Shown: positions 2,810 to 54,896, numbered from the whole stretch's first letter. The stretch: DNA of 63,650 bases, filler included, from Asterionella formosa (GCA_002256025.1; 14 parts of 14 records of this genome joined end to end with filler, not necessarily neighbours in it), one strand, 5' to 3'. A program made the numbers and translations. The notes: generated from the letters alone by a model not told the origin.

Positions 2810-2817
2810 TTTGTACC

Positions 2818-7416: not shown

Positions 7417-7521
7417 CACTACATCTAAGCCGCGTATTACGTAAAATGACCATCACATAATTAAGCCTAGTTGATTTTGAATGCATCACATGAATTACCG
7501 GTAGTTGAATAAATCAACTAC

Positions 7522-7589
<68 letters not shown>

Positions 7590-10595: not shown

Positions 10596-10629
10596 CCTTC
10601 ATGCATTTATAGAATCATCACAAGGTCCT

Positions 10630-11183: not shown

Positions 11184-11713
11184 AGATATTCTGAAATCAA
11201 TATAAACCCCCGGAGCACCAGTACATATGCTCTGCACATGTTTACACTATAAATTGTTTATCTATTCATGTACGTATGTCAGCATAAATGAATAGGAAGT
11301 CCGGCAGTAGAAAGCGCTGTGCATTTGGATTCAAAAACTTTCGGTTTCAGTCACTGGTAACAGAGTACTGCTCGCCATTCAATCGCCAAGTCGTCAACCA
11401 CGCTGAGAATTTGATTTTGGATACGATGACGTGTGGAAGTTGTGTGTGTATATAAGAAATATATATACCAGCACCACAACCCAGTTGTTGTCTGCCCACC
11501 TCCGCCAGCCGAGTACGCCAGTATTACCTAGGCCGTGTGGGCGGGACTGAAACCGAAAGTTAGCGAATCCAAACGCACAGCGCTTTCTACTGCCGGACTT
11601 CCTAATCATTTATCCTGACATCCGTACATGGATAGATAAACAATTTATACGGTAAGCATGTGCAGTGCATATGTACTGGTGCTCTGGGGGTTTATATCGA
11701 TTTCAGGATATCT
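11184..11713. mobile_element. Fold-back or MITE-like element with 169-bp terminal inverted repeats
   Basis: 11184..11352 is the reverse complement of 11545..11713 with 15 mismatches by hand count (about 91%). Spacer 192 bp. No TSD seen. Confidence 0.85.
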
Positions 11714-11912
11714 GTTATACACGAACGGACGCACTTCAGCACTCCGTATTGCCGTGTGACCAGGTAAAGGCTACCTGGTTGCCTATAGGAAACCCGCATT
11801 ATTTCGTGTTCCATATACCGCTACATATTAGTGTACCTAAATAATACATTGCTAAAATACCGGTAACCACAAGCACTTGCAATCTACCGGTATTCTCGTC
11901 AACTGCTTCGTC

Positions 11913-12695: not shown

Positions 12696-12994
12696 AGTGA
12701 ATCCTTCGGAAGCGAATTAAGTGCACAGAATGCAGTTCATAACCCATAACATTTCACCCTAATACAAGCTCCACGTATGTTCAACCGCAAACTTGAGAAC
12801 TCACCGTATGCTCATTCCGCCAGTACAGCAGTGAAATACATTATCTATGTGAAGAGGAATAAATGCTCTATGTGTTCACAGGGTGCACTTTGCGATCAAG
12901 CAGAAGTGTTCACTATTTCTTGTCATACTTGGAGTAGTAGGATAGGGGCAATCCCCACCCAACAGCTATTGTCTTGTTTTGTTTTTCGATGAGA

Positions 12995-14292: not shown

Positions 14293-14905
14293 CAGTCTGC
14301 CTGGTAGCATCCACTAAATTTCCGCCAGCAGCATATTGCTGCCACGGCAGTACAGAACCAGCTGGAAGGTCTGGTAGCGCATGTTCTATGCGCGCCTTTC
14401 AGTTTCGACACACTCCCAATAGATCGTCTCATGCCTGCCGGACGAGATACTAGACTGGCTTTTCATTCCAAATTCTCTTGAGTAACTTTCTTCAATGTTT
14501 AATTATCATTCATTAAATCCAAGTCGTGTTCTGATCATCGAAATCGTTCTAACCTACTACTAATACTGGTAGTGTTATTCAGCAACTGGATGACGGTTTG
14601 ATGATGGAATTCACCTATCAGCAAGTTGTAGTCGTAGTCGTAGTCAGCAAATTCTAGTCGCATGTACTCCGTAGTCGCCAAATTGGGTCAGAAATCGTAA
14701 GCAAAGACTCATTTTGAGAAAGTGTCAATGGACTATTAATAGATATTACCTAAATAGAAAATCAAACAAATTTGGTTCTACCTATAGATTATCGTAGTGT
14801 AGCATATTCCTACTACTGCGAAAGTTTCAAATTTGTTCTTAAGGACTGTATTTTGTATTATTTCAATTACATATATCTATGATTATTGATTATGATTTGC
14901 AAATC

Positions 14906-15032
14906 TGTTGTTGTTGTTGTTGATGTTGTTGATGTTGTTGATGTTGTTGATGTTGTTGATGTTGTTGATGTTGTTGATGATGTTGATGATGTTGATGATG
15001 TTGATGTTGTTGATGATGTTGATGATGTTGTG
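14906..15032. repeat. Compound microsatellite (GTT)n / (GATGTTGTT)n / (GATGATGTT)n
   Basis: Directly visible 3- and 9-bp periodicity. Confidence 0.95.
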
Positions 15033-15120
15033 ACTATACATATTGGTACATTAATACATATCTCGGTTTGGTATATATGTACCAAACCGTTACCCTGCTG
15101 CTGGTTGTCGCCAGTGTACG

Positions 15121-15491
15121 AATTTTATTTCTGAACACCATCATTGCATTTGTATCATAGCTCCCCTCCATCCTGCTACCTGGTACAAGGTACCGGTAGG
15201 CTGAAAAATAAGACATTCCCTAACTCTAATGTAATTAGAAGTTTGTTTGCTGCTTAAGTTTAAGCAAGATGTCAGTTTCCTGTGTGAGTTTAAGGAAGAT
15301 GTTCAGTTCCCTGCTTACGTTAAAAGTTTCTTTGGTGGGAACAAGGCCGGCATGCATGCATATCACCCTGCCGGCCCATCCCAAGGATGCTAAGCAACAT
15401 ATAATGACTTAAGTTTTTGCAGCGAATTTTGAAACGTGTATCAAAAATTTACTTTCATGTGTACAAAACACGTTATCTGTATGTCCCTGGT
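15121..15491 (+). repeat. Dispersed repeat; parts homologous to 27598..27707 plus 28762..28790, and to 31666..31829
   Basis: CTGAACACCATCATTGCATT..GGCTGAAAA..AATGTAAT..GTTTGC.GCTTA..TTAAGCAAGAT shared with 27.6/28.8 kb. TTGGTGGG..GGCCGGC..AGTTTTTGC..AATTTTGAAAC.TGTATCAAAAATT shared with 31.7 kb. Confidence 0.8.
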
Positions 15492-15645
15492 AGTCCTGCT
15501 CGGCAGTATGCAGATATGCATATAACTGCTCAGATATATTTTAATCTTCATCTCTGGCCTGTCACCACTGACAATCCGTGTTATGCCATGATACACTGTG
15601 ATACAAATTAGGGATACAGTGTCAAGTTTGGAAAGAATGAAATTA

Positions 15646-16948
15646 AGGTCCGTTCTTATCATTTTTTTCGTGTATCACGGAATTTGAATTTTTTTGAAAA
15701 TGTATCAGCAACGGTAACTCGATTTGAACTGAATTTCATTCATTCCAAAAGTGTCACTGTATCACTTATTTGTGATCACATTGTATCATGGAGTAACATG
15801 GATCTTCAACGGCAACTGGCTGGCGAAGATCATGTGTATATCCCTCCGGAATATAATGATGGTCTTGATATCAAGCAACAACATAAAATATAATTACCGG
15901 GAAACTAACATTATATTAAAAACACACATTTGCATGAATCATGTCGTCGCCATTTGATTTACTTGATGATAATGATGATGACAGTAGTGATCTTGATTTC
16001 TTCTTCCTCTGTCATTTAGCTAAGGAAGCAGAGGAAAAAGAACACTCATCCAAACGACAAAGGCGACGCTGTAAACGGCAGCTTCAGTCATCTGAACGAC
16101 GACGACAACGAAGGCACAAGTGGAACCACGAAAGAATCTCCTGGCAATCACATGTCAAGAAACTCAATCACGAGATTGCTTTCGAGAAGACATACAGAAT
16201 GTCACACAGAGCATTCAAAAAACTCACCTCCATGCTGGAAATTCAGATTGCAGGGAATTATTCCAAATGTGGCACTTCTGAGCCCATAATTCCCGAAATT
16301 ATGGTAGCCATTGGTTTGCGATGGCTGGCTGGTGGCAGTTACATCGACATTCGTCATGCCTACGGTTGTAGCATTGCTTCATTTTATCGATGTCGTGATT
16401 TGTTCATTGATGCTGTACTAAACTGTGGAGAACTCGAAATTGTTTTTCCAAAAGAAAAAGAAAAAGAAGAATTTATCAAATTGGCTTCCAGCTTTGAATG
16501 CAAAAGCTCAGAGGGCATGATGAGAGGATGTTGGTGCTATTGACGGCTTCCTAGCCACCATCAACCGCCCGACTATAGTTGAAAGTGGCAACAACCCTGG
16601 TTCATTTTTTCCCGGTCACTACATGACTTATGGAATCAATGTCCAGGCTGTTTGTGATGCTGACTCAAGATTTATTTATTTTGGTGTAATTGCACCGGGA
16701 AAATGCAGTGACCAAGTAGCTTTTGAACGAACTTCCATTTTCGATCGAGTTGCAGCATTCAACACAGGTTTTTATCTGGTCGGCGATGCAGCTTACACAT
16801 TGTCTGATGTAATGCTTGTTCCCTTTGTTGGCTCACAACGTGATGATACAACACAGGATACATTTAACTTTTTCCTTTCACAGCTAAGGATAAGAATAGA
16901 AATGGCATTTGGTCTTCTTCAGACAAAATGGTGTGTTCTAAAAAAAAC
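15646..16948 (+). mobile_element. PIF/Harbinger transposon: putative left end plus HARBI1-like DDE transposase (CDS 15941..>16948, one frameshift, cut by contig end)
   Basis: FEKTYRMS..F, GLRWLAGGSYIDI, then after a frameshift near 16530 GAIDG..GINVQAVCD..LVGDAAY..FNFFLSQLRIRIEMAFGLLQTKW. TTA|AGGTCCGTTC candidate terminus at 15646. Confidence 0.9.
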
Positions 16949-17048
16949 NNNNNNNNNNNNNNNNNNNNNNNNNNNNNNNNNNNNNNNNNNNNTTAATTAA
17001 TTAANNNNNNNNNNNNNNNNNNNNNNNNNNNNNNNNNNNNNNNNNNNN
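16949..17048. other. Artificial contig linker (N44-TTAATTAATTAA-N44, stops in all frames); 13 occurrences
   Basis: Same linker at 16949, 18100, 19252, 20404, 21555, 22706, 39734, 40885, 42036, 43187, 44338, 61350 and 62501, each 100 bp. Confidence 0.99.
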
Positions 17049-17481: not shown

Positions 17482-17830
17482 CTACATCTAAGCCTCTTAT
17501 TACGTGAAGTGACCATCACGTAAATAAGCCTAGTTGATTTTGAATGGATCACATGAATTAGTTGAATACATCAAAATGCTTACTTGAATATATCTATATA
17601 TTATCTGAATACATCACGTTAATTATTTGATCAGAGTATCATGCATGCATTCCTGATCATCACTATATTACGTGATCACCTTCACATAATTATTTGAAAT
17701 ACTTCACATAATTATTTGAAATACTTCAATTAATTCTGTAATTCAGTTCACATTGCCTTAAATTTTTGTTCACGTAATTCTATAATATGGTTCACGTAAT
17801 TTATTAAATTTTTTTACGTATTTTAAAAGT
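17482..17830. repeat. Second copy of the 7.4-7.8 kb repeat
   Basis: Aligns with 7419..7830; lacks the long (TA)n and the CCGGTA insertion. Confidence 0.85.
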
Positions 17831-21654: not shown

Positions 21655-22705
21655 GCCGCCGCGCCGAGGATCACCGCCGGACGCTTGGCGTTCTTCATCG
21701 CGTCGCCCAATTCCTTGGGGATGCGGTTGAGGAGCTTGAGGTCGCTGCCGAGGAAGGTCGCCGGATAGGTCGGCTCCCACGCGGGGCCGATGATGTAGAC
21801 CTTGGCGCCCGCCTTCACCGCTTTGCGCAGGCGGACGTTGAGGAGCGCGGCTTCCCAGCGGACGTTGCTGCCGACGATCAGGATAGCGTCGGCGGTTTCG
21901 ATACCAGCAAAGGTGCTGTTGAAGTTCACCGCCGCGAGGTTCGACACGTCGTAGGTCATGCCGGTCTGGCGCGCTTCGGTGAGCTGCGATCCGCAAGCGT
22001 TCACCAGCGTCTTGGCCGCAAACATCGTCTCGGCGTCGAGCAGATCGCCCGCCACCGCCGCGATGCTCGCCTTGTCGCCTTCCAGAGCGCCCGCGATCAT
22101 GCCGAAAGCCTCGGTCCATTCGGCGGACTGGAGCTTGCTGTCACGGCGCACCCACACGCGGTCGAGGCGGCGCTTGGTGAGGCCGTCGACCTGATAGCGG
22201 CCCTTGTCCGACAGCCACTCCTCGTTGACGTCGTCATTGATGCGCGGCAGCGCGCGCATCACTTCGCGGCCCTTGGAATGGAGCGGGATGTTGGCCCCCA
22301 CCGCGTCCGAGACGTCGATGCTCAGGGTCTTCTTCAGCTCCCACGGCCGCGCCTCGAAGGCATAGGGCCGCGAGGTCAGCGCGCCGACCGGGCAAAGGTC
22401 GATGACGTTGGCCGAAAGCTCGTGCGCCGCCGCCTTCTCCAGATAGGTCGTGATCTGCATGTCCTCGCCGCGATACAGCGCGCCGATTTCGTCCACGCCG
22501 GCGATCTCTTCCGAGAAGCGCACGCAGCGGGTGCAGTGGATGCAGCGGGTCATGATCGTCTTGATCAGCGGGCCCATGTACTTCTCGGTCACCGCGCGCT
22601 TGTTCTCGTGATAGCGCGAGCCGCCGCGGCCATAGGCGACCGCCTGATCCTGCAGATCGCACTCGCCGCCCTGATCGCAGATCGGGCAATCGAGCGGGTG
22701 GTTGA
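21655..22705 (-). CDS. nuoG: NADH-quinone oxidoreductase subunit G, internal fragment, alphaproteobacterial (sphingomonad-like)
   Basis: NHPLDCPICDQGGECDLQDQ, MTRCIHCTRCVRF, DLCPVGALT, NEEWLSDKGR. Whole contig is high-GC coding sequence, unlike the host contigs. Confidence 0.97.
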
Positions 22706-22805: not shown

Positions 22806-23724
22806 CATTTCGACGTGCATGTGTTGATGGGTACTTCCGAAGGCTGTGTGTGCCAATCAAACCATTGTTCATTCGTTTGAACTCACTACTTTCCCATACA
22901 TCATCACGCAGAATTGTATAGGCCTTTCTTTTAGCATTTGATGGATTGTTGGTTTGTAGCGAAAACACCCATGGATTTTCAGGTGATGCGCCTTGTTCCA
23001 TACATTCTGTCTCAAGATGAACAGCCAAGGCAAGGAGAACGCAATAGTCTTGCGACATGGATGCAATGAGTACCTGGTTTGGTGCCTCCCTCTCTTCTTT
23101 AGCGTTTTTTGTCCAACACAGCTTGGCCATCAGAGTGAAAGGAAATCGAAGATTCGCAGTTAGGTTTATTTTTGTTAATTGCACACAATCGTCAATTCGG
23201 CCGACCATGTGGAATTGAAAGACACATAGTGCAGGCAACTGATACCGATGAATACTGTCCTTGAATGAATGAAGGATATGCATTGTACTGGAGAACTCTT
23301 GGGATTCTAGGGGTCGCCTTGCTTGTGATGGTTTCCCTTGTCTGCGCACTTCCTTCTTTTTCACTGCCTTGATGAGATTATTGACAGGCACAGACCTTGT
23401 TGGATTGCCACTGTGCATAATAGCATTCCAAGTGGAGAGTCGATTTGGCATAAAATACGACAATGCCTTTTTGTAGTATTCCAGGGAAGAAGACCGGCCA
23501 TGTGTTGGATTGTCATCATTGTTTGGATCAGGACGGCCATAGACTTTCATAGCCATCCATTTGTAGACATCCTCAGGTGTAACTTCCCCAAGTTCCTCTG
23601 GACTAAACTCGTAGCTTTTAGAATATTCTATGCCATCTCTGTATGACATCATAGCAATTAGGACACTCTTGTAAACAGGGGATTGTGTAGGTTCATTTAC
23701 TCTTCTTGTTGGCATTGTCGCCAT
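22806..23724 (-). mobile_element. Crypton-type tyrosine recombinase (stramenopile CryptonS-like), 3'-truncated by contig end
   Basis: Open 306+ codon frame: YYKKALSYFMP..GNPTRS..VN.LIK.VKK; candidate catalytic R (GRIDD), K (WTKN) and HxxR (GTHSLRK). No RT or other retroelement domain upstream. Confidence 0.8.
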
Positions 23725-23779
23725 GTTGATATTTAGTTTAATTTTTTACTTCAATCCCATTTCATACCATGTTGTATCG

Positions 23780-24113
23780 TGGTAGAATTTCTTGGAAAAT
23801 ACCATGGCATACTGCAGGGTTCCATTGGTCCGTTGGTAGAATATTCTACCAAAATGTGAAAAAAAATTCTACCCCCAGTACTACTGGGTAGAATTTTTGC
23901 CTTTGTCTATACCATATTTTCACCACGGTCAAGCAAGGGAGGGGTACCGGACAGTATTGACCTGTCCAGAGTAGAACACTACCGGAGCCCTGCAGAAAAA
24001 TACTACTTTGGTAGAATTTCGTCAATAATGTCAAGGTACCATCATGTCCCGAGTAGGACAATACCAGGGGTCTACAGAAAAATACAACTTGGGTTGAATT
24101 TTACCAATAACAG
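23780..24113. promoter_or_regulatory. Cluster of GGTAGAAT inverted and direct repeats upstream of the recombinase
   Basis: Perfect 20-bp palindrome TTGGTAGAATATTCTACCAA (23833..23852). 13-bp inverted arms AAAAATTCTACCC / GGGTAGAATTTTT (23862..23898). Two imperfect ~83-bp direct repeats (about 23958..24030 and 24038..24113). Confidence 0.55.
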
Positions 24114-24484
24114 ATATGTACCTGTCATCACATTGCTCTGCTTTTGGTACCAGGTACCAGTTACCAGGTACAACAATACCGGTAACCTCGTGCGGTCGCA
24201 TCATAATACGACGTTACCAAGCAGTGGGTACCTGGTACCTGGTACCACTTCTACCAGGTACCAGTACTGGTACGTACCAGCATCAACAAATGAGAATCCA
24301 AGCCACACTTCGGGTACCCGGTATGCATGTTAATAGCTACATCGTCACAATTAATATATTTTGTATGATCATTGAATAGAAGTCATCATTAAAATTATAT
24401 ACATTTCATCAGCAATCATCGTCAGTAGAGAGACCTTCCTTTCCAACCAGCAAGTGAATTCCACCCCCTTCCTCAACTGTCATC

Positions 24485-26209
24485 ATGGCGAAACCGAAGA
24501 AGATCATCAACGATCCCGCTGATGCTGTCGAAGAATTTGTCCAAGGGTTACTCGTTCAGTTTCCCAACAGATTTGTGAAGCTCCAAAATCACAATGCCCT
24601 GCTCAAATCCAAATTGACTCCACAAGTTCAGCTCTTGTCGGGTGGTGGATCAGGCCATGAGCCTAGCCACGCTGGTTGGATTGGAGACGGGATGTTGAGT
24701 GGAGCCATTCTAGGTGGGATTTTCGCTTCACCGTCCGTTGCTTCCATCCTTGCCACCATTCGAGCTGTCGCCAAGGATGGATCATCGGTCATATTGATTG
24801 TTAAAAATTACACTGGAGACCGCCTAAACTTCGGCATGGCCATTGAAAAGGCTAGTATGGAGGGAATTCACTGTGCCATGGTGGTTGTCGCTGACGATAC
24901 CGCTGTACCTAGGGAAAAGGGCATTACCGGTGCTCGCGGAGTGGCTGGCACAGTCTTGGTGCACAAGATTGCAGGTGCCGCCGCAAAGATGGAAAAGTCG
25001 CTCGAGGAGATATTGGAATTGTCGAAAAATGTTTGCGCTCGTATTGGTACGTTGGGCGTGGCTCTCGATGCCGTGACTGTGCCTGGTGCGTCGGAAATCA
25101 ACAACCGTCTCGACGACCATACCATTGAGATTGGTCTAGGAATTCACGGCGAGGCAGGCATGAGGCAATCTCATTTGCTATCTGCCAAAGCTATGGCCAC
25201 TGAAATGCTTCAAATAATCAAAGCCTATGGTCGAGATATTAATGGATCAATTGTTCCAATGTGGGAGTCGGGAGACGAAGTCTGCCTTTTGGTAAACAAC
25301 CTTGGGGGCACATCGAACTTTGAAATGAGTATCTTGGCGCAATCAGCTGTCAGAGTTTTGGAGACAGATCACGGAGTCAAGGTGACTCGACTACTTGTTG
25401 GATCGTACATGACTAGTTTTGACATGCATGGTGCTTCCTTGACTGTCTTAAACATGGCGGGCGCGCCTTCCTTGTTGGTAGAATGCTTGGATGCTACTAC
25501 GACAGCTCCAGCTTGGGTTGGTTGTGACGTAATGACCGGAGATGTTCGTCGATCAGCTACCGAGTTTCCAGAAATTTTTATCGAAGCAGCGGACGTGAAA
25601 ATCAACTTGCCACCATTGGTCAACTGGAACGATGCGGCGGCTGCTCTGGAGGCAGCGGCGGAAGCACTTGCTGGAGCGGAAGGCCTCTTGACCACATATG
25701 ATACCATTGTTGGTGATGGTGATTGTGGTATTACCATGAAACGTGGGGCTGTGAAAGTTTTGGAAGGGGGAATACCAACGGATCACCCCGTCTTGATGTT
25801 TGCGGCGCTAGCTGAGGCAATCTCAGCATCCATGGGAGGAACCTCTGGTGTCCTGCTCGAGCTCATGTTTCGTAAAATGAGCGCTACGCTATCCCGGTGT
25901 GATCGAATTTCCGAAAAGGAATTGGCCCTTGCCTTTCAAGCAGGCGTCGATGCGATCTCCCTGTACGGGGGTGCCAAGGTCGGAGCTCGAACAATGTTGG
26001 ACGCCCTAGTTCCTGCTGCCTCAAGTCTAGTGGCCAACGGTGACCTTTCTGAAGCTGCGAAGAAGGCTCAAGAAGGGGCCGAATCGACGGCGAAAATGAA
26101 GTCAGCAAGTGCTGGGCGATCCAACTACCTGAATGCAGAAACGTTGGAAGGGACCCCAGATCCGGGAGCAGTTGCTGTTGCTGTTGTTCTCGATGCTTTG
26201 GTCACATAG
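24485..26209 (+). CDS. DAK: Dihydroxyacetone kinase / triokinase-FMN cyclase (DhaK-DhaL fusion)
   Basis: SGGGSGHEPSHAG, KNYTGDRLNFG, GLGIHGEAG, VGDGDCG, MGGTSG, RTMLDAL, AGRSNY, PDPGA. 574 aa. Confidence 0.96.
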   Translation: MAKPKKIINDPADAVEEFVQGLLVQFPNRFVKLQNHNALLKSKLTPQVQLLSGGGSGHEPSHAGWIGDGMLSGAILGGIFASPSVASILATIRAVAKDGSSVILIVKNYTGDRLNFGMAIEKASMEGIHCAMVVVADDTAVPREKGITGARGVAGTVLVHKIAGAAAKMEKSLEEILELSKNVCARIGTLGVALDAVTVPGASEINNRLDDHTIEIGLGIHGEAGMRQSHLLSAKAMATEMLQIIKAYGRDINGSIVPMWESGDEVCLLVNNLGGTSNFEMSILAQSAVRVLETDHGVKVTRLLVGSYMTSFDMHGASLTVLNMAGAPSLLVECLDATTTAPAWVGCDVMTGDVRRSATEFPEIFIEAADVKINLPPLVNWNDAAAALEAAAEALAGAEGLLTTYDTIVGDGDCGITMKRGAVKVLEGGIPTDHPVLMFAALAEAISASMGGTSGVLLELMFRKMSATLSRCDRISEKELALAFQAGVDAISLYGGAKVGARTMLDALVPAASSLVANGDLSEAAKKAQEGAESTAKMKSASAGRSNYLNAETLEGTPDPGAVAVAVVLDALVT

Positions 26210-26836
26210 CAGATTTCGTTGCTTCATAATCATTGTACTCTATTTAATCGATTGCTCCGTCATGTATATATGATACTGGATCAATCAACGTTGTGACATG
26301 TACATTCACTTTTAGTTTTAAGTGAAGAATACTTGATAGAACCAATTTCCATGAACTATACGAGCAATCGTGGCCGCCATCCAACAAGATTCGACCCTTT
26401 TGCTTGCTTCGTCTAGACTCAATCCCGAATCATACTACTGATAAAAAAGTATACTTTAAATTTAGCCTTACATAATAGCAAATAGCATCCGAAAAATCTC
26501 CCAAAATATCACTAAGGAAAAGCTAAGGATTACATTCATCATTTCTCGTAATTATTAAACCTTTTTCCCGTGTTTCAGCACTCACCGTCACCACGTCTGT
26601 TGGGTTGATTACCGGGCATGTTCCAGCAGGCTGAAATCTAAATACATGGCTGGTACTCGGAGTAGCTGGGACATCCGGAAAACGTGCTTGAAACCGTTTA
26701 ACGGCAATAATTTTGGGGGTTAACATTTTATTAGCTATCTAACTACTATGCAGAACTTCAAATATATATAGAGAGTGCGTCGTGCAAGGGCTGGCACGCT
26801 TCCGTGGAGGCTTCGCTTGTGCTCTTGACCCATGCT

Positions 26837-26968
26837 GCTTAGGTTAAAAGTGAATAAGCATTTGATGCTTAAGTTACTAAAAGTAGATAAGCGTTCTTTG
26901 GTTCTTAAGTTAAAAGTAAATAACAAGCGTTTGGTGCTTAAGTTGAAAGTAAATAACAAGCGTTTGGT
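26837..26968. repeat. Minisatellite, four 30-36 bp units (TGCTTAAGTTAAAAGTAAATAACAAGCGTTTGG)
   Basis: Four adjacent imperfect units with no spacers. Confidence 0.85.
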
Positions 26969-27707
26969 ACATATTAGGTACTCGGAGTAACTTATTTCCA
27001 GAGTTACCTGAACGTAGGATTCCTTGTTGACAACTTAGAATGCAGCAAGCACAAACCCAATTATTCTCATCTTCGAGTCAGTATATAGCTATTGCTGAGA
27101 ATGGTGACTTGGCAATGGAAAAAACGATATGATAGTGACGATCACATGATCCAGCTATTATAACAGATAAATATTGAATTATAAATCAATTTTTGTTTGG
27201 GCCTGATCCCTTGTAGGCAATGGAGCATTGTAGAATGGCGCATATGTGCGAATAAGACGCGTTTCAATGCGATGATGAGGCATCGAGATATTGTCTTTGT
27301 TGTTGAGCCCACTTGTGGTGGGTTTCCGATTTTACTGTTTCTGCTATATCTAAACAAACGTAGTAGTAGCTAGCCTACAATTAAAATCGTGTGCTAATCT
27401 CTAGCGACTATTTGATTCTATCTATTTGACTAGTATACAATAAAAAATGAGGGGAAGGTGGCATGATCGTTCTCGTCAAATGATAAGGCCATTTGTTGTA
27501 GTTGTTGCTGACATAATTACATTTTTCATTAAATTTTTGTCATCCTAGCTATATCACAGTCGATGGGTGGCTGACAACGTTTAGGTTTTCTGGGAGAAAA
27601 TTTTACTTCTGAACACCATCATTGCATTAGCTAAACCTCCATCTGGCTACCGATGGGCTGAAAAGACACCCCTTAACCGTAATGTAATGAAGTTCGTTTG
27701 CGGCTTA

Positions 27708-28761
27708 AGGTTCCTGCATTTCAACCCTAGTTTAGAAGTAGGGTTAAAAAAATAATATAGAGTCAGAGTACTCAAACACACACTTCTTATGAGTAAAACA
27801 TAAATGTGTATCGCTAAACGGAGCTTTCACCAGCAATATACACCCTTTCCATATGCTTAGATACAGTCATTGACAAAAGTAGGGGTATAGGTCAACGCTA
27901 TATATCGTCAGGATATAGGATCTGGCGAGAAACTGCAGAAAAGAACTTCGGTTTTTTAACTGTGCTATAAAGACTAGAAATTTCGGGGGAAATCACTTTA
28001 TTTGGCATAGTAAAAAAACCGAAGTTCCTTTCTGCAGTTTCTCGCCAGAAGTTATATACTGATGCTAGTTGAAGGTTACCTATGTATCTAAATCGGCTTC
28101 AGACCCAGCCAACGTTGAGCTATTGTTGTCCAAAAATTCGACAAAATCGGCCTTTTCTACGGTCCCCGAAATATCGGAATCAGAACCACTTAGCGCCGAA
28201 ACGTCATCATTGGAATGGTAGTCTTGTGATGCAATATTTAGTTGTAAAATTTCCAGTACCAAAAATTCCATTGTAAGTGCGCGCAGTATTATATATATAC
28301 TGATTGGCTTTGGTGAAATACTCGCCTCCATTTGTTTTCAAGAGGAATTGCAATCCCACACCGGCCACATTGAATACACATGTAACATTTCTTTGGGTGT
28401 ACCGGTAGGCCGGTACTATATCCATTGCGGGTACCAGTAGATTATCATCATTGGACATCATACGTGTGGTACCTGCTACCACTCGTTGATTGCACTTTCA
28501 AATATTTGCCGAGCCGCCGGGTCCTATATAAGAAAAATAATCGTTGGTACATATACATACAGTCATGAACAATGTATATATATATATTTAGCTATTTCAA
28601 AAAGGAATCTATGTACGTACGCGCAAATTTTCACTGATTTGAATATTTCAAACGGAATCATGTCATTCAAAAATAGCTCCTATAAATTCTTAGTTCAAGG
28701 GAATTTCGGCAACCCTAAGCAATATTTTAATTTTTGCCTTAGGGTTGAAATGCAGGAACCT
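27708..28761. mobile_element. Non-autonomous PIF/Harbinger element, 1054 bp, perfect 22-bp TIRs, TTA target duplication
   Basis: TTA|AGGTTCCTGCATTTCAACCCTA ... TAGGGTTGAAATGCAGGAACCT|TTA. Empty-site homologue at about 15250..15270. A further family end at 39079. Confidence 0.92.
27921..28049. repeat. Hairpin with about 45-bp arms inside the Harbinger element
   Basis: TCTGGCGAGAAACTGCAGAAAAGAACTTCGGTTTTTT pairs with AAAAAACCGAAGTTCCTTTCTGCAGTTTCTCGCCAGA. Confidence 0.9.
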
Positions 28762-29928
28762 TTAGATTAAGCAAGATTGACTTTTGCTGCTCAAGGTTGC
28801 TTCCCCGGCTTAACCCTAGTTAGGAGAAAATATCACTAGGGTTGTAAAAACGGTGTGGAACAGGGAGTTTCCTACTATGAATTCCCATGATTCGAGTGTC
28901 CATCTGAATATTTGAATTAAATAGGAATCGGCGCCAGATTGATAGAGTTCCATTTTAAACAAACAAAAATGATATTTAAACGTTTATGCTAGATCTACAT
29001 TGCTTGATGTAGACATGATTTTGCTCAACGCCAAAAAAAAACCGGTAAATAAATCAAGAGTATGCCAACATGTATGCTCATGGTTCGTGTTTGTACGTTA
29101 TATTGAATCTACGCTGCTGTATGTTGGTCTAATAAAGATCAGCACGGTACCAGGTACCGAAGTTCCAGAGTAACGGTGTACTGGTAGTACATATTCTCGG
29201 TTCATGATGATGGAAGACAGGATGAAACTGGTACCGGTGTACTGGTACTGATTTTACCTGCATGTATGGTACATCAAATACTTGGGGTTCAAGTGTGGCT
29301 GGCGTGATTTTGCAAGACCGGAATACCTCAGCCAATCTGGAGCATGTAAGTAAATTCAATTCAACCAATCAGAATATGTGCAGTGACGTGGCAACGTACC
29401 CTGGAGTCTTTTCGGACTGAGAGTTAAGCAGCAAAACATACCTACGCAAGACTCTAAGTCTACGAGAACGTTTTGCACATACAAATTACGATTCCAATAT
29501 TTTGGCGACTGTTGAAAAAGCCGATCGGGTCGACTCTTTGGAGGAGGATTGCTCTACATCTGCGGGGTTTCATCAAGATTAAACTAGATGAGTCCTGATA
29601 AAAGGTGCTGAAAACACGTCATCATGGAAAAGAGGAATCTATCTGAAAGGAATCTTAGCCTATCACTTGCCCACCTTGATCTTTTTCGATATTTCTTTTG
29701 ATGTATTACACAATATATATTTATCTATTAGAGTTCATATATTACCTTGCCGGCGTTCCATTCCTCGATTTACAGCATACCTAGTTATCTCAAATGCATA
29801 AAAAGTAATTGCTCGATGCTGGACCACTGCCGCATTGCGTTGTTCATCATGATCATGGTTCATCCTCTCATTTTCTCCAATGAAGAAACAAGTGATTCTG
29901 GTAAGGAGGACGCTCAGCAACGGCGCCG

Positions 29929-30590
29929 ATGATCCTCAGTCCAGTCGGGTATGTTGATGTGTCAGATCGCTTGGGTGTGGCATTTGATAGCAAAATTGAC
30001 GTCAAGCATTTTGGCAGTGAGAACAAGACGATTGGAGATTTCATTGGTGATGAGCCTTCACGTAAGATCAGTGAACAGGTGCTTGATGATACCAATAATG
30101 ACAACGGTAGCGATGTTAAGATTGGTGGCGTTACTGTACAGCTGAAAGATCCCAATGGTACAATTATCATGCCAACCATGACTGACTGCAATGGTAACTT
30201 CACGTTGAATGCTGCTTCTCCAGGCATGTACCGGTAAACAATTGTCAAACAGAAACCTCCTGGATTTGTCAATGTTGGCAGCAGCACAATTTCTGTAAAT
30301 ACAAGTTCTGGAAATGTCTTAAACATTTTTTTCGTTGACCAGCACCCCAGCAGTGCTCCAAGTGTGAGTGGCTGGCTGCCTCTCCAGTTACTTTTTGCTT
30401 GGATCAATTTCCAGAAGCATTAAGGAAGATACCGACAACAATGATAGTGAATACACTAACTTGGTGGGTGTGACTGTTACTCTACAGGGTCCAAGTGGTA
30501 CCCGCCCTATTCTATAGAGGACTAGTAGTGTTAGTGACTTTAATGGCAACTTTTTGTTCGTGAATGCCCAATGGCAATTATGTTGTTAAG
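29929..30590 (+). pseudogene. Decayed SdrD-B / Cna-B-like repeat adhesin fragment
   Basis: ISEQVLDDTNNDNGSDVKIGGVTVQLKDPNGTI..TMTDCNGNFTL..PGMY*, and a second repeat ISRSIKEDTDNND..NLVGVTVTLQGPSGT..DFNGNFLF. Stops and frameshifts present. Confidence 0.65.
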
Positions 30591-31055
30591 AAGATCATCA
30601 TCCCAGCATTTGCACCACCACATCTTCCTTGTGACCCAACATGGAGCAGACCACTTCAGAAACATCTACTCCTTCCTTTTTTACGAACATGATAGCATCA
30701 TGATGTCTGTGTTGAATAAACCCGTCACCTTCATTTAAGCTGTTTGTTACCCTTTAGTTCCTCTGTATATCTCAATGCTGTCTGTAGTGAAGGTAAATAT
30801 TTATTTCGAGCAAGTTTACCAGACTTTCCGTTGCATCTTATCTTGATATTCATATCATTGCAGAAAAATTAAAGCAACTTGTTTGATGTTCCAGATATCT
30901 GGCGCTAGCTAGCTACTATTAGCTACGTGTCAGGCTACATAGCACAGTACGAGGAGTCGGATTTGATACTGCGGAAACAAAACTGATACATACAGGCGTT
31001 TCCTCTTATACCGGTATTATAGAATCTACACTATACCGTATACCAGGTACCAGGT

Positions 31056-31223
31056 ACCAGGGGACCACAGTTTGAACCAGCTTACAAAGCGTCGGGCATG
31101 TGTATTGAGACGGGTAGGCGCAGGTGCGAAACTACACTGTACCAGGAACACTGTTTGAACCAGCATACCCGGTATACAGAATCGTGAATGCGTATTGAGA
31201 CGGGCAGGCGCAGGTCCGAACAC
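31056..31223. repeat. Two imperfect tandem copies of about 85 bp
   Basis: GTTTGAACCAGC..GTATTGAGACGGG(T/C)AGGCGCAGGT present twice. Confidence 0.8.
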
Positions 31224-31350
31224 TTGTCTTCGCATTGTCTGATCAAGATTCCGTTCCCTCATGTGCTTCCACCTGGAATCTTTTATTCTACGTGGAAAAT
31301 ATACTAGTGACGTAGATGATGACGTGTTTTCAGCACCTTTTATCAGGATC

Positions 31351-31435
31351 CTATGTATCGTAGATTTTTAGAAAAGCTTCGTAGCCCCTTTTTTTTTGAC
31401 CATTTTTGCTATAGTTCCGAATCTACGATACATAG
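31351..31435. mobile_element. 85-bp miniature inverted-repeat element
   Basis: CTATGTATCGTAGATT ... AATCTACGATACATAG, a perfect 16-bp inverted repeat, directly beside the right 33-bp TIR. Confidence 0.65.
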
Positions 31436-32300
31436 CTGCAGTTTCTTTCCAGAAATTTTTAGGTCCATAACATATCCGAAGATAGAACACACCCCTAAGT
31501 CGACCCATGACTGTATCTAAACATTTGCAAAGTGGTCTTATTGGTGAAAGCTAATTTTCCCTTTAACTATTTTATGTACTTGTACGTAATGTGTGGATTG
31601 AGGTTCATCATAAAATTATTTTGGGAAAAAAGGACCTCGCAATATGCAACTGCGGGGCCGCAACCTTGGTGGGGAGGCCGGCGTGCTTGCATTTTGCCAT
31701 GCCGGTCCCTCCCAAACGACGTTGAAGTACCGGTACCGGTATGTAGTTTTAGTTTTTGCGGCAAATTTTGAAACATGTATCAAAAATTCACTTCGATGTG
31801 TACAAGGACGTTTTCCGTATGTAGCTGGTGCCTGTGCAAGTTGAGGTAAACGAGAAAATTAACTTTATTTACCTGATAGTAAGAACCCCTTTTTCCTGGC
31901 AATACCTAAGGTACCCTGGTACCTGCTACGCTGGTACCCTTCAGTACACGCACGAGGAGATAATTATCAGTGGCTGATACACACAGGTATGTATGTACCC
32001 GTACACCGTTAGGTGCGCTAGGTTTAGACATCATTGTCATTGCATACCGGGATATTTTCTACGAAGTATACAGACAGCACTGGATAATACAGTATTATCA
32101 GGTACGACCGCAGTGAATATGCATACCGGGTAACCTTCATACCGGTATAACTCAACAAAACTACCGTACCGGTATTAGCGACGAGCATTTTCGTCTTGAG
32201 GACAAGCAAGGCGATCCAATTGAAATTGGGAGCTATTATTTTCTGATCGGCAATTATAGTGTATCAATTGTAGACCGTCCACTACTATACACTATACACC

Positions 32301-33965
32301 ATGGTTCATCAAGAAGCGTTACAAGAAGCAGATGATCGATTGCCGATCGTTGCAATGAGCAATGGCGAAGAACCCCTTGAAGATCGAGTGACTGACCTTT
32401 CGTTGGAAGAGCTTCTTTACAGCTCTGCCTCGTTCCATGCCATTTCAATTCCAGTTTCGCTGACCTTGATTTTGACGGCGCTCTGTGTCGTCTATATCAA
32501 TACAGAACAAACAATGGCACAAGGAGAAGCAGCCCTGTCGTCTACGTACGAAGCCTTCAACAACAACACCGATTCCAACGCCCAAACTTTGGGGATAAGT
32601 TTGCTGAATGCCTTGATTATTGTTTCCGTCATCTGCGCAATGACATTTGTGATTGTCCTGCTCTACAAATATCACTGCATCAATTGTCTGATTGGTTACA
32701 TGATGCTAAGCAGTACTATGCTTCTTGGATTTCTTGGCGGGAACATGTTTAAAGTTGCGATTGATAAATACCAATTGGCAATTGATAAGTTCAGCTTCTA
32801 CTTCACCATGTACAACTTTGCCATTGTCGGTGTGGCTTCCATATTTTGGAAGAAAGGCATTCCTGTTTGGATTGAACAGTTCTACTTGATTTCGACCTCT
32901 GTCATTTTGGCTTGGCAGTTGTCTCATTTTGATCCATGGACATCGTGGACCTTGCTCGTCATGTTGGCATTGTACGATTTATGTGCTGTTTTAACTCCGT
33001 GTGGGCCCTTGAAAGCGCTTGTCAACCTAATGCACCAGGAGGGATCACCAGATATGCCGGGATTGTTGTATGAAGCCCAGCTACCAAGTGAAGCAAGACG
33101 ACCAAGGGCTCGGCGACGACGAGGTCCTCGAAACGATACAATGCACACAGCTGGCACTGTTGTTTCGGAGGAACCGTCTCCAGCCTCAACAGATGAACCA
33201 GTGCAAATCGCATCTAATAGATCTAGAGAGGAAGGTGATCAAGATAATGAATTCGGGACGACTGCAGCGACAACACCTGCAGCAGAAACACCACAAACTG
33301 AAGAAGGCCAAAGACGACGTCCACCAGCGCCAAGAGCAACTATACCTCTTGCAATCGCGAAACTTTACCGACTTCAGATCGTGGAAAATGTTGAACCACT
33401 ACGTCCTAGCCTAACTCCTCTCCTAGGGGAAGACGGAACTCCCGACGAGAGTGACAATGTCGCACCGCATGAAGCGATGAGCCCCCAGTATACACCAGAA
33501 CAGCTAAAGAGCGAGGTTACTGCCATTTTCCCACGAGGTGGAGGACGAATTGAAAAGGGCAGAAATGCAGCTGGTGCAATCCGATATGCGGTCAGGGACA
33601 GAAACGATAATATAACTCGTATTTTGTGTATCGATGATGAAGGCAGAGTGCTGGAGGAACGACACAGAAATGAGGGCGACGAAGATGAACCCCCACGAAA
33701 CTCGATCAAGTTAGGACTCGGTGATTTCATCTTTTATTCTGTATTGGTGGCTAACGCCATACTTTACTCATTCACTACATTTGCTGCCTGCTTTCTGGTG
33801 ATTCTTGCCGGACTGGGTGGGACGCTCGTGCTCCTTGCTGTATACAAGCAGGCACTACCGGCATTGCCGATTTCAATATTTTTGGGTGTCATATTTTATC
33901 TCCTTACGCGAGAATTGATTGAGCCGTGGATCCAGGTGATTTTCGACCAACCATATTACGTTTGA
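32301..33965 (+). CDS. PSEN: Presenilin (gamma-secretase catalytic subunit)
   Basis: Multi-TM protein with LALYDLCAVLTPCGPL (YD), KLGLGDFIFYS (GxGD) and ALPALPISI (PAL), plus a long hydrophilic loop. Confidence 0.96.
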   Translation: MVHQEALQEADDRLPIVAMSNGEEPLEDRVTDLSLEELLYSSASFHAISIPVSLTLILTALCVVYINTEQTMAQGEAALSSTYEAFNNNTDSNAQTLGISLLNALIIVSVICAMTFVIVLLYKYHCINCLIGYMMLSSTMLLGFLGGNMFKVAIDKYQLAIDKFSFYFTMYNFAIVGVASIFWKKGIPVWIEQFYLISTSVILAWQLSHFDPWTSWTLLVMLALYDLCAVLTPCGPLKALVNLMHQEGSPDMPGLLYEAQLPSEARRPRARRRRGPRNDTMHTAGTVVSEEPSPASTDEPVQIASNRSREEGDQDNEFGTTAATTPAAETPQTEEGQRRRPPAPRATIPLAIAKLYRLQIVENVEPLRPSLTPLLGEDGTPDESDNVAPHEAMSPQYTPEQLKSEVTAIFPRGGGRIEKGRNAAGAIRYAVRDRNDNITRILCIDDEGRVLEERHRNEGDEDEPPRNSIKLGLGDFIFYSVLVANAILYSFTTFAACFLVILAGLGGTLVLLAVYKQALPALPISIFLGVIFYLLTRELIEPWIQVIFDQPYYV

Positions 33966-34039
33966 TAGAAAAAGTACCTTGGTGATAGACATGAATACAA
34001 TTGCTAAACAGGCGAGCTTAGGACTCGTTTAAGATGTAA

Positions 34040-41339: not shown

Positions 41340-43286
41340 TGCAATAATGTCCCCTTACTACGGTAAACAAAACTCTGTATCCGATTAACTTATTATTAGT
41401 GGAACCAATTTTGGGGATGTTGATTATCCGCACGGTACCTGGTACCCTGGTACTCCGGAATGGATCATAATTTGTTGCTCAACCTCCATACCGGTATATT
41501 CCTCATGATCATGCTGGGTTGATTTACCGGTATGTTAAAGTGCAGCATACAATAAAGTGACTACATTTGACTACTAGTAAAAATGTGATACATCAAGAAA
41601 GTATACCAATAATTCTTACTAGGGTCTACCGGTATGTGATGTACTGTCAAGATTTAGTACTGCGTGCATATTAGTTCAGTCGAACTAATCAACCTTGAAT
41701 AATATTCCAGCCAAAATCCCGTATTGAAATGCTGTGAGAATTTGAACAGCATTGATTGCCAAGAACTATATCAGCAAACCAAGGTAAATATTCGAATGGA
41801 GAATGTTCTAAGTAATTAATATTTCAATGAAAGAAAGGTATATATGCAATGCAGATAGCATTGAATATTCACGATTGTTCTACTAAGTGAGTGGAGTTGA
41901 GTTGTCAGTTGAGAATTGAATGTCTAACAACACAATGAATATCTATATACAAATTTGGGAAGAGAACCTTAATAATTGGTCATGTGAACGATTACAAGAT
42001 AGATCAAATAAGCTCACAATAAGGTGGGATTAGAANNNNNNNNNNNNNNNNNNNNNNNNNNNNNNNNNNNNNNNNNNNNTTAATTAATTAANNNNNNNNN
42101 NNNNNNNNNNNNNNNNNNNNNNNNNNNNNNNNNNNTCTGTCCTTCAGCACACACAGGGGGGACTGATCACTTACCAGTCACCTGTAGGTCTCTGCAAGGC
42201 TAATCAATCGTGGTTGGTGACGCAACTCAAAGTTCCTTGACAATTTTTTACAGTTGACTACCTGGTACCGTAACCGCTATTACAATGTTGTAGAAATACT
42301 CTCTAATACCTTTATACATATATTTAAAAGGTGATGCCAGCTGAATGGAGTAAAAATTAAATTAGCTTTTTTATTTCATTTCTAGTCGACAGCAACCTTT
42401 GGGACCAAATGATGCGGAAGTAATGCTAGCTAATTGACGAGTTCAGAGCACGATTATTATTGGTTAGCACATAAATCGCTACAACATTACTTGAATAATT
42501 ATGTTCGTATCTAGCATATTTATCCCAAAACGTGAATTTACTCGATTTAACGTTGACTCTCAGTTCAAAATCTTTCAAACGTTGACTCTCAGTTTTTAGG
42601 TGGTACCAGGTACCAGGTACCGTACTATTACCGCAAGGGACCAGTACCAGGTAGTAGTACCGGTATATTTTCTTGTTGTCTGTTATTTTTTGGTTAGGTT
42701 CATGCTTTATTTCTGCCTTTGGTGTCAACGGGGAATCAATGATAACTGTAACATCAGAAAACAGCATTTTCTTTAATGTTTGGTTGTACTGCAATTTTGA
42801 AAAGAAGCAAGGCTTTATCTAAGTGCTGTTATGTATTACATGGTGTGGGCTACTTCCTAGGAGCCCTACGATAGGTGATCCATTGTAAGAAAACTGACTT
42901 TTGCGACTTCCTACATCACATAGCCGCCCAACCAATGCCTACAAGCGGTGTAGCATCCAACCAAACAACGGTATGTCTGGGGCTATGAAATAAATCCAAT
43001 TAAAATTTGCACATCCGACCATCTTATATTGTACTGATATCGACATGGACATTTCTCAGGGCTGCTAAATATACAGGATCATTCACAATCTCAGGATACT
43101 CTTGAAGCAAGGTTTTGAGGACTTGTTTGGCAGGCACCTTATCGAGCAAAGCCTGTTTCAAAGCAGCGACTCGTTCTTCAGTTTTGNNNNNNNNNNNNNN
43201 NNNNNNNNNNNNNNNNNNNNNNNNNNNNNNTTAATTAATTAANNNNNNNNNNNNNNNNNNNNNNNNNNNNNNNNNNNNNNNNNNNN

Positions 43287-47713: not shown

Positions 47714-47735
47714 GCATCCGTGTCCAGCAGGAGTG

Positions 47736-48155: not shown

Positions 48156-49695
48156 AAGTGAGTACCGGTACCATTAGTTATGACTCACAGTCGAATGAGT
48201 CGAATATGGTGTACCAACCTCCATCAACCACATTATTTCATTATTCTGCCATAATGAGCCCAACAATTTAAAAAATTGTCCATGAAATCTTATAGTATGT
48301 TAAAGCTATCCAATAATCACACTATAATGAGCCGAACAATAGTATACCCGTAGACTACTGGTATTTGGAAGATATGATCAATGGCTATAAAATTATGATC
48401 AATGAATGTGAGATAGACATGGTTCTATCTATAAATGTATGATCTGACAAAAGCAAACAGCATTTGAAATAAAGTTCATTTGATTATTAAAACCAAACAA
48501 TTCTAATACCCCTTAGTAACTCACAATAAGAATATAGCAATGAATGAGAAATGAATGTCTCTTTCTATGTTCTCCTTTGTCTAATGATAGATCTATCTAG
48601 AAAAGGAAATACTTTAACATAAAAATATGGGTACCTGATACGGAGTAGTCTTTCAGATCCTATGTATCGGTATCCGGAATAATGTACTCCCTTTGGTTGA
48701 ATATAGTTGTGGCAATTCTTAAAATTTCTCTTGCTCAATTGCTCTAGTGATGTGTGCCTTGCTTGAAGATAGTACAGATCCATGCAATATATATACGTAG
48801 TAAATTTAAAATTGGCAACTACATATCAAAATATCAAAAGCATTTTGGGGTTTTTCAATTTTCACATTTACTATCTTGAACAAAATTCAGATGCATCAGA
48901 TGCATGAGGACCCATTTTTTCAAACCATCTAGTGCAGTATTCTCAAAATACATACAAAGTACGATGTAACACTATAACTTCATTCAATTATGGAATGCGC
49001 AACCATGAAAGTGGCGATGATAGGAAGGAAGATAATGATGATTTTGCTTGTTTTGATGATTGGAACTGTTAAATTTCCAGCAGCAGCAGTGGACAGACAG
49101 CTGCTACTAAATTTCTCAATTTCCGCGCCTTCCCACCCTTGCTGGATGTATGCCCATACACCCATAGCTTTCTATTTTCCACCTACCTGGTACCAGGTAC
49201 TGACTGTCGTCCCAGAGAAAGCCAATCTCGACGTGAACAATGGTTTGTATGTATAGCTAGCCGAGATACCGATATGATTATGAGCGGTGCACATTGATAC
49301 ATAAACAACAAGAACCACCCGAAAAAACTTGTAGACCTGGGAGACTCCTACATACAGTACTTGGAGTACCAGGTTTGTTCGGGAAAGCAAATACCGGCAT
49401 TCCGTATGTATGTAGTTGCTACTGGAACCTGGTACCGGGTACTCGTTCTGTGCGAATCATCGCCCAACCAAGCAACAACTGTTTTCGCCAAACGTTCTAC
49501 CGGTACTGTACCTTTGTGCATATTGATGGATCTTCTTGAAGTTGTTTGCTTGTTGCTTTCAGTTTCCGGTAGTTTAAAGTCGTTGCTGCAGTTTGTGTTT
49601 TCATTCGACTAGCTTGCACTGCATTGCATTGTATTACCGTTGTTGTATTGCCACACTAAGCAGAAGCGATATCGCCAGCAGGAAGTCGCATTGCC

Positions 49696-54396: not shown

Positions 54397-54896
54397 TCTC
54401 AATCTGCTTTACATCAAGAAAGATGAGAAATAGAAAGAACGATTCTTCTCATTTGGTGTATCATGTACCATACATATGAATACCGGTACCCCTGGTACCG
54501 GACGGTACCTGGTACCAGGTAGTATACAGCCTACCGATATATGCACACCCGGTTCTAGGAGTAGTAATTATTTCATTTTGCTACCGGTACATACCGTACA
54601 TACATCTCGAATTTTTGGATTATATCGCTCAAAGCTCTGACTGTGCAATGATTGCTCGTTTGTCTGAGCACTTCTTTTATACCAATATTGCAAATAGAAT
54701 GCACAACAGTGCAAACCCTGGTACACCAGGTACCAGGCACCCGGAGCTCCCGTCTCCTATTTGAATGATGATGTTAACATACCGGTACATACGATGGACT
54801 TCACTTCCGGTACCTGGTACCAGGGTTCTATCCATCTACGACCACAGAAGGATAGACAACAAACTGTAACCTGGTACCAGGTACTTGCTTCTGACG

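Follow-up and report, generated by a model that had tools for sequence, protein, structure and literature searches.

TA-bounded palindromic units on the promoter side of diatom genes: possible hypermutable arrays of a promoter element

The stretch of Asterionella formosa DNA analysed here (the window, 63,650 nucleotides with filler) carries, upstream of a dihydroxyacetone kinase (DAK) gene, a series of short strings in which TA dinucleotides alternate with segments beginning in C and ending in G. The question raised by this locus is whether such strings record repeated visits of a TA-duplicating transposon, as proposed in a first-pass annotation of the DNA, or have another origin. The DAK gene (Dak1+Dak2 by Pfam; 24485..26209, + strand) has its ATG 162-337 bp downstream of the arrays; the named relatives of its protein are all pennate diatoms, with the best named match in Fragilaria crotonensis (69% identity). 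An orthologue of DAK with 82% identity is present on a contig of 15.6 kb. The strings at 24146-24323 read exactly as previously given. In order, and with no strand assigned, they are an array GGTACCA-GGTACCA-GTTACCA-GGTAC, equivalent to TA-CCAGG-TA-CCAGT-TA-CCAGG-TA (24146..24171; GGTACCA x3.7 by Tandem Repeats Finder (TRF)); a single unit TACCGGTA (24177..24184); an array of GGTACCT x2.9, equivalent to TA-CCTGG-TA-CCTGG-TA (24227..24246; TRF); the chain TA-CCAGG-TA-CCAG-TA-CTGG-TA-CG-TA, TACCAGGTACCAGTACTGGTACGTA (24252..24276); and a single unit TACCCGGTA (24315..24323), the single units and the chain being taken from reading of the sequence. With 10 units in 176 bp and a count of 9 core units, this is the densest of the 27 clusters in the window.

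The window itself is an artificial concatenation. Thirteen linkers of the form N44-TTAATTAATTAA-N44 (the first at 16949-17048, with 12 further sites) join three contigs of ~16.9 kb (1-16948, 22806-39733 and 44438-61349) and eleven of ~1.05 kb, so that neighbourhood and features across linkers are not real. DAK, presenilin and COG8 are genuinely linked on one contig, and the array sites at 41435 and 42602 each lie on their own separate 1-kb contig. Two 1-kb contigs, 21655-22705 (GC-rich and open on both strands) and 39834-40884 (with a TonB-dependent receptor plug domain), look bacterial; the assembly combines the alga with bacteria associated with it. The sequencing runs containing window DNA are lake/freshwater metagenomes and an "algae metagenome".

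All of the further sites at which the same grammar had been noted (31728-31938, 32163, 41435, 49184-49510, 54481-54875, 29146, 31038 and 42602) were found to be present. The cluster 5' of presenilin (32274-33965, + strand) extends over 31728..32174 and comprises TACCGGTACCGGTA, an GGTACCCT array, TACCGGGTA, TACCGGTA and TACCGTACCGGTA; that 5' of 2-oxoglutarate dehydrogenase (49660-53016, + strand) occupies 49184..49510 and includes a 16-nt palindrome, TACCTGGTACCAGGTA. Seven core units lie at 54481..54883, in the divergent spacer between a kelch gene (53320-54408, - strand) and a proteasome subunit gene (54870-55745, + strand). On the 1-kb contig 40985-42035, a cluster at 41436..41634 adjoins an LTR (41645-42035); the label "glycosyltransferase" formerly attached to this locus could not be confirmed, Pfam returning no families there. 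A further cluster (42259..42665), on a separate 1-kb contig, contains a 41-nt module that ends in an array and is common to 14249-14289. Units at 28400..29247 lie within or beside a high-copy MITE-like element (27709-28762) and a neighbouring repeat, and those at 31009..31174 (TACCGGTA, (TACCAGG)x3 and TACCCGGTA) lie inside a TIR-bounded element (29599-31347). Head-to-tail arrays of the same core, with periods of 6, 7 and 8, were reported by TRF at 24146, 24227, 31041, 31727, 31910, 41434 and 42602.

Compared with expectation from base composition, TACCGGTA occurs 28 times in the window (0.9 expected) and TACCWGGTA 21 times (0.5 expected); GGTACC (56 versus 9.9), TACCAGGTA (13 versus 0.3) and TACCTGGTA (8 versus 0.2) are also in excess. 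The grammar as first formulated matched 127 chains, 16 of which had at least two units, for a total of 147 units. Means of 42 chains, 0.5 multi-unit chains and 43 units were obtained from order-1 Markov resamples (n = 60), and of 63, 1.2 and 64 from order-3 resamples (n = 60), the most multi-unit chains in any resample being 5. When the sequence was cut at every TA and each segment was compared with 20 order-1 resamples, CCGG was found 28 times versus 0.65, CCAGG 13 versus 0.15, CCTGG 8 versus 0.05, CCAG 8 versus 0.55, CTGG 8 versus 0.65 and CCCTGG 3 versus 0; the corresponding figure for TACCWGGTA was 21 versus 0.2. Enrichment of the TA-unit-TA grammar in this inter-TA segment test is 40-180 fold, as TA duplication bracketing a short remnant would give.

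Isolated occurrences define the elementary object. GGTACC with no unit on either side accounts for 17 of the 56 copies in the window, where 9.7 are expected for all GGTACC, and for 55 of the 302 in the second diatom described below, where 49.3 are expected for all GGTACC. By contrast, isolated TACCGGTA and TACCWGGTA are strongly enriched. Given that isolated GGTACC is little or not enriched, GGTACC is the seam of two units and the elementary object is a palindrome running from TA to TA; the TA-(C..G)-TA parse adopted earlier is therefore the right one. Neighbouring units share one TA, and a chain therefore reads GGTACC(W)GGTACC. The forms observed are TA-CCGG-TA, TA-CC(A/T)GG-TA, the shortened CCAG/CTGG and CCG/CGG, and CG. 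Most of the 28 TACCGGTA sites in the window are solitary, and their flanks are mutually unrelated. The spacing from GTAC to GTAC is most often 7, lesser peaks falling at 5, 6, 8, 14 and 21; at 10-11 bp, where helical phasing would show, there is none. Rfam gave no matches.

A metagenome collection was scanned for GGTACCWGGTACCWGGTACC, yielding at least 124 stretches, and 123 loci (502 kb) were analysed, with 4 duplicates removed. These loci were selected by an array 20-mer and are in that sense ascertained; further units were therefore counted at >40 nt from the 20-mer. Among the matches listed, at least two further units were present in 47 of the 74 loci with a GC content of 0.38-0.50 (1.38 units/kb) and in neither of the two with GC <0.38 (0.23/kb), and 5 of the 43 with GC >0.50 had further units (0.24/kb), most loci of this last class being plain (GGTACCW)n. 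Three loci of the 0.38-0.50 class have bacterial-type genes (L021, L029 and L066). Twenty-three long loci with a GC content of 0.43-0.48 (255 kb) are here termed the second diatom. They carry ordinary eukaryotic genes, five with DUF6824 domains, and one of their enzymes has named relatives that are all diatoms, at ~55% identity or less. Their inter-TA segments include 153 CCAGG (0.8 expected), 143 CCTGG (0.9 expected) and 16 CCGG (1.6 expected); GC, GTC/GAC and (TAG)n segments are also enriched, and (TAG)n/(TAC)n, TAGCTA and TAG(A/T)CTA abound in the spacers as well. The unit class is present in at least two diatoms, the proteins of which are distant both from each other and from those of named species, and the recurrence of the same 8-9-bp palindromes in both and in 47 of 74 loci argues for a conserved reader or process rather than chance microsatellites. 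No match to the array 20-mer was detected in the viral contigs scanned.

Other low-complexity sequence was encountered in these loci. Promoter spacers of the second-diatom loci, for example in L014 (21-567, 2425-3298 and 9658-10264), consist almost wholly of TA plus G/C strings, (TAG)n, (TAC)n, TACTAGTA, TAGCTA and TAG(A/T)CTA, and TAGTAG occurs 470 times in the second-diatom loci (74 expected), a vocabulary wider than that of the window species. L021 and L066 (GC 0.40), which have Bacteroidota-like genes (Por_Secre_tail and DNA polymerase III beta), contain intergenic heptamer arrays of GGTACCT plus GCTACCC/GTTACCT that may be an unrelated heptanucleotide-repeat phenomenon. At ~150-260 of L006, a (GGTACCT)n array abuts telomere-like CCCTAAA repeats.

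The location of units relative to genes was determined in the second diatom by taking ORFs of at least 200 aa as rough genes and counting units as TACC(N0-2)GGTA. With ascertained arrays included, coding DNA held 6 units in 133 kb (0.05/kb) and 3'-3' spacers 2 units in 9.5 kb (0.21/kb), compared with 51 units in 18.5 kb of 5'-5' spacers (2.75/kb) and 130 units in 56.7 kb of tandem spacers (2.29/kb). Of the 130 units in tandem spacers, 96 lay in the half closer to the downstream gene and 2 in the first fifth. Given that the loci had been picked for carrying an array, the count was redone excluding spacers with the ascertained 20-mer. Units were then present in 14 of 43 spacers containing a 5' end (40 units, 0.82/kb) and in 1 of 19 convergent spacers (0.10/kb); these counts were strongly clumped, with many zeros followed by 6, 10 and 10. 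In the window, two divergent spacers hold 14 units and 13.2 kb of ORFs of at least 200 aa hold none, in keeping with the earlier remark that units are rare in CDS. The promoter-side position of the units is thus borne out by density in each spacer type, by the skew within tandem spacers and by the non-ascertained spacers. No strand bias relative to gene direction was observed for ten complementary unit pairs (C/G, CAG/CTG, CCAG/CTGG etc.), which is how palindromic sites or promoter DNA that is not transcribed should behave. A reading of the units as 5'-UTR sequence or as a means of uATG avoidance was rejected on the same absence of strand bias. The Pfam content of unit-bearing genes in the window and loci reveals no common function.

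Our tentative preference, to which we assign somewhat less than an even chance, is that the units are hypermutable arrays of a palindromic cis-acting promoter element. The putative element would either be bound by a candidate dimeric DNA-binding factor, as a palindrome of TACC half-sites spaced by 0 or 1, or act as a chromatin-opening sequence, and unit number would change via short-homology (TA) recombination, slippage and quasi-palindrome template switching. We infer that the units are bound or otherwise functional, as well as this mutational route, from several lines of evidence. The palindromes are strongly enriched where lone GGTACC is little or not enriched, and they lie on the promoter side in both counts, such enrichment of a defined core being the pattern of binding-site clusters. 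Orientation bias is absent in ten unit pairs, the palindromes are common to distant diatoms, and no transposon agent was found in the searches described below. That a single palindrome recurs in distant lineages, and there only on the promoter side, suggests that either its reader or an enzyme has been conserved. Against the cis-element reading, units occur in only about one-third of non-ascertained promoters and are clumped there; the genes concerned lack a common function; the spacing peak is at 7, with no helical phasing; overlapping sites that share a TA could not all be occupied simultaneously; and the binding factor is a candidate only.

Comparison of repeat copies was informative as to how the units change. 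GAAT-TA-GTTG in a repeat copy at ~17560 stands opposite GAAT-TA-CCGG-TA-GTTG in its paralogue, so that the copies differ by exactly CCGGTA and TACCGGTA (7496..7503) occurs in place of a bare TA. A tandem pair differs by 7 nt, yielding TACCCGGTA at 31166. Three pairs had been cited as support for gain at single TAs: those at 7496 and 31166 stood, the first as a clean TA versus TA-CCGG-TA and the second as the 7-nt difference, and the one at 15177 proved not to be clean. Among the metagenome loci, all-against-all BLAST for allelic pairs returned L049/L063 and two Copia copies in L035 only; 0 of 9 indels between the Copia copies were of unit type. The homologous promoters of L049 and L063 hardly differ in unique DNA; in this one pair the differences are almost all whole units: CCTA-AGCA versus CCTA-CAGG-TA-CGCA, GAGTTA-T-TA-TA-AG versus GAGTTA-CCGG-TA-CCAGG-TA-CTGG-TA-GC, and GTCTGC-TG-CCGCTG versus GTCTGC-TA-CTGG-TA-CCAGG-TA-CCAGG-TA-CTGG-TA-CTGCAG. 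The units are hypervariable and, as these differences imply, not fixed in position, arrays standing opposite one dinucleotide in the relative. Positional conservation was not observed between L049 and L063 (one pair), which counts against the cis-element reading, as does the appearance of a new TACCGGTA at a bare TA, which slippage does not make. Units therefore come and go at single TA sites, as had been claimed, with direction unset in these two-copy comparisons, in which deletion between two TAs would look alike.

The same comparisons can be viewed as excision scars. Here, the units would be footprints left either by a domesticated transposase cutting at TA in open promoter DNA or by a TA-duplicating Tc1/mariner-like element whose ends are CC(A)G...C(T)GG. 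Repeated visits, each adding remnant bases and a further TA, would grow the arrays; we regard this as unlikely, if deserving of serious weight. The grammar is exactly TA + remnant + TA, the repeat copies show TA versus TA-CCGG-TA, the arrays of L049/L063 stand opposite a single TA or TG, and the clumped distribution is as local hopping would yield. Nevertheless, inter-TA deletion gives the same picture as gain in comparisons of two copies, and the second diatom enriches GC, GTC/GAC and (TAG)n, which the scar grammar cannot make.

The central W of adjacent units bears on both scars and slippage. Adjacent CCWGG pairs of the second diatom numbered 8 AA, 10 TT, 10 AT and 10 TA once the ascertained 20-mers were masked (25/22/18/21 for AA/TT/AT/TA unmasked). 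A random A/T between neighbours indicates that plain slippage is insufficient, and, in line with the first-pass annotation, the variation is not slippage of identical adjacent units. The footprint of Sleeping Beauty is C(A/T)G, and resolution of an A:A mismatch between identical overhangs would give a random W in scars. Quasi-palindrome correction, an established mechanism, could also randomise W. The full two-overhang form TACCATGGTA is rare, with 0 in the window and 4 in the second diatom, and we know of no 5-nt stagger in the Tc1/mariner superfamily, a point counted against scars.

These observations also apply to a neutral origin, in which the units would be a self-propagating palindromic micro/minisatellite that spreads by slippage and hairpin template switching where selection is weak, with neither function nor transposon. 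The TRF head-to-tail arrays with periods of 6, 7 and 8 are what slippage produces, unit number differs between homologous promoters, pure (GGTACCW)n is also found in the 43 loci of GC >0.50 and in bacterial-type contigs, (TAG)n/(TAC)n occupy the same places in the second diatom, and randomisation of W could come from quasi-palindrome correction. Such an origin is nonetheless improbable. Units are depleted in 3'-3' spacers, which are expected to be equally neutral; solitary units with unrelated flanks, which slippage does not make, are the commonest in the window; the unit is common to distant diatoms; and identical neighbours are not in excess.

Shortened units were examined in the same manner. 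Random one-base loss from CCWGG predicts CCAG, CTGG, CAGG and CCTG in equal numbers. For the window, the second diatom and other diatom-like loci, the observed ratios of CCAG+CTGG to CAGG+CCTG were 16:3, 114:11 and 66:10, respectively (196:24 summed), and that of CCA+TGG to CCT+AGG in the second diatom was 61:13. The 4-nt variants in all three data sets accordingly match the end-remnant grammar of the first-pass annotation and fit remnants of an element with CCAG...CTGG ends, and CCAGG/CCTGG contain the 4-nt and 3-nt variants as prefixes or suffixes, in line with scars. However, C-to-T CpG decay of CCGG explains CCAG/CTGG equally well, and CpG decay of CCG/CGG also predicts enriched CAG/CTG and CCA/TGG; the same asymmetric variants are therefore predicted without scars. 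The single-substitution variants of CCWGG, 20 in kind, together account for 64 segments of the second diatom (13.7 expected), whereas shorter and longer forms are ~258 above expectation (sum of per-token rows). Given that length variants far exceed substitution variants, junction-like length variation dominates, which favours scars; neither this excess nor the CCAG/CTGG asymmetry is predicted by simple decay of a binding site, a further point against the cis-element reading. A hairpin-opening (P-nucleotide-like) origin was rejected, given that GGTATACC is absent from the window and has 3 occurrences in the second diatom.

In summary, the footprint reading explains the grammar better than any rival, but without an agent, and CpG decay together with quasi-palindrome correction can mimic its finer predictions. 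A broader form of it, in which TA-targeted DNA breaking by a mariner-like element or domesticated transposase in open promoter DNA leaves CC(W)GG + TA scars and remodels promoters unit by unit, is in our judgement doubtful; the rate of such remodelling would be visible between close strains.

Read contigs from four DNA runs were placed on 23900-38200. These contigs break at arrays, and the joints 24171->24227 and 24247->31041 have short sides (20-25 nt); they probably derive from other array loci and were not used as alleles. One contig (X9) covering 24151-24780 contains 15 gap letters at places not shown, a hint of length polymorphism.

Neither the window nor 409 kb of diatom-like loci yielded the element predicted to account for the scars, TA-flanked with CC... 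termini, an outcome that the first-pass annotation had named as a refutation. A search for TA-flanked inverted repeats starting with CC in the window and all 123 loci returned only arrays pairing with arrays, and a general TIR scan of the 409 kb of diatom-like loci gave no TA-bounded element with CC... ends. By Pfam, no Tc1/mariner or pogo transposase was present among 144 window ORFs (38 + 106) or among 143 ORFs of the loci (12 + 131), a small, gene-rich sample. Both results weigh against excision scars. The only transposase found was a PIF/Harbinger fragment at 16524-16948 (DDE_Tnp_4, E 1e-22), truncated where its contig stops. There are also related 22-nt subterminal repeats (7674-7727 and 17539-17825). 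A large hairpin-forming element at 11184-11713 consists of a 169-nt inverted repeat whose arms, 91% complementary, are 192 nt apart.

The window contains other mobile DNA, part of which carries units. The MITE-like element at 27709-28762 has roughly 21-nt TIRs (GGTTCCTGCATTTCAACCCTA), an internal long hairpin and units inside, and its summed contig depth, ~1000-2000x that of coding bins, marks a very high-copy family. A 1.7-kb element at 29599-31347 has perfect 27-nt TIRs (TAAAAGGTGCTGAAAACACGTCATCAT) and a 183-aa ORF without a Pfam match, with several palindromic units near its right end. Over 41645-42035 the window matches, at 99% identity, a Copia-type retrotransposon LTR; L035 (1-9149) has two copies of this retrotransposon, and the window segment is, to judge from the match, a solo or truncated LTR. 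L035 is from the window's species or a close relative and has sequence in common with the window through the Copia LTR only; its use as an allele of the 41-kb array locus was rejected on that account. The 41-nt module (AACGTTGACTCTCAG...GGTGG followed by a TACCAGG array) is present at 14249-14289 and 42578-42618, two unlinked sites with 98% identity, and its 12-mer GTTGACTCTCAG is duplicated 29 nt upstream, at 42552. The module may be a second promoter word or an element end. As an element end with a CCA terminus, AACGTTGACTCTCAG...GGTGG was rejected, no inverted partner being found in the window or loci. L022 and L028 (GC 0.53) were likewise rejected as a MITE with CCAGGT ends flanked by units: their similarity continues past the ends, indicating a larger repeat, which was left out of the analysis. 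Over 23900-38200, summed contig depth in intergenic bins is 100-2000x that of coding bins. High intergenic depth and these mobile elements together indicate a repeat-rich genome, although no element observed ends as the scar model demands.

The arrays might simply be passengers, internal parts of MITEs or other repeats that were carried upstream of genes by them. The intergenic depth, the units inside the elements at 29599-31347 and 27709-28762, and the array-ending module common to 14249-14289 and 42578-42618 are consistent with this. It is nevertheless very improbable, given that the flanks of most units are unrelated, that repeat copies differ precisely at units, that arrays are dense in the second diatom although its 143 ORFs include no transposon gene, and that depth arises partly from arrays cross-mapping (joints 24247->31041). 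The remaining probability falls to an explanation outside the four considered, namely cis-element, scars, neutral satellite and passenger.

The arrays of TA-bounded palindromes are real and apparently undescribed. Excision footprints of Stowaway/mariner elements are treated in PMC4561436. Within reach of the literature search, which left subscription journals and preprint supplements outside and took in some sources only in part, there was no description of such units or of promoter accumulation of footprints, and no GGTACCWGGTACC-type strings were in print within the papers covered. The terms mariner, MITE, promoter, excision and upstream are absent from the accessible part of bioRxiv 10.1101/2025.10.24.684338. 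If functional, the units would be a candidate general diatom promoter element, where diatom promoter grammar is poorly known, and would give strains an inherent means of diverging rapidly in expression. As scars, they would constitute the first instance known to us of a transposon or transposase visibly building promoters unit by unit. On either reading, TACCGGTA and TACCWGGTA provide a cheap, testable marker in any diatom genome, one that lends itself to mapping against open chromatin, transcription start sites and polymorphism among strains.

Four known systems invite comparison. As in Tc1/mariner footprints (Sleeping Beauty TA-C(A/T)G-TA), a few bases stand between duplicated TAs, the A/T at the centre resembles mismatch resolution and the variants are prefix- or suffix-like. 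Unlike those footprints, the diatom units are of 4-5 nt rather than 2-3, are chained, lie on the promoter side only at ~1 per kb, and have no element or transposase in the window or loci. Unstable tandem repeats are known from promoters, examples being yeast promoter repeats and GAGA-type microsatellite elements; like these, the units are short, concentrated in promoters and variable in copy number between close relatives, but they are TA-bounded palindromes of mixed length, with a random W and many solitary copies. Palindromic sites for dimeric transcription factors with a CCGG/ACCGGT core, exemplified by Leu3-type CCGG-NN-CCGG, Grainyhead AACCGGTT and STAT TTCC(W)GGAA, serve as leads. The diatom units resemble them in being 8-9-bp palindromes with CC(W)GG centres, and CCGGTACCGG occurs within the chains; they differ in that the spacing varies (0, 1 or 2), sites overlap, positions are not conserved and the factor is a candidate only. 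Finally, HIP1 of cyanobacteria is a highly iterated 8-bp palindrome found genome-wide, including coding DNA. The diatom units share with HIP1 an 8-bp palindrome that is tens of times over-represented and scattered among unrelated flanks; unlike HIP1, they occur in chains and are depleted in coding DNA and 3' spacers.
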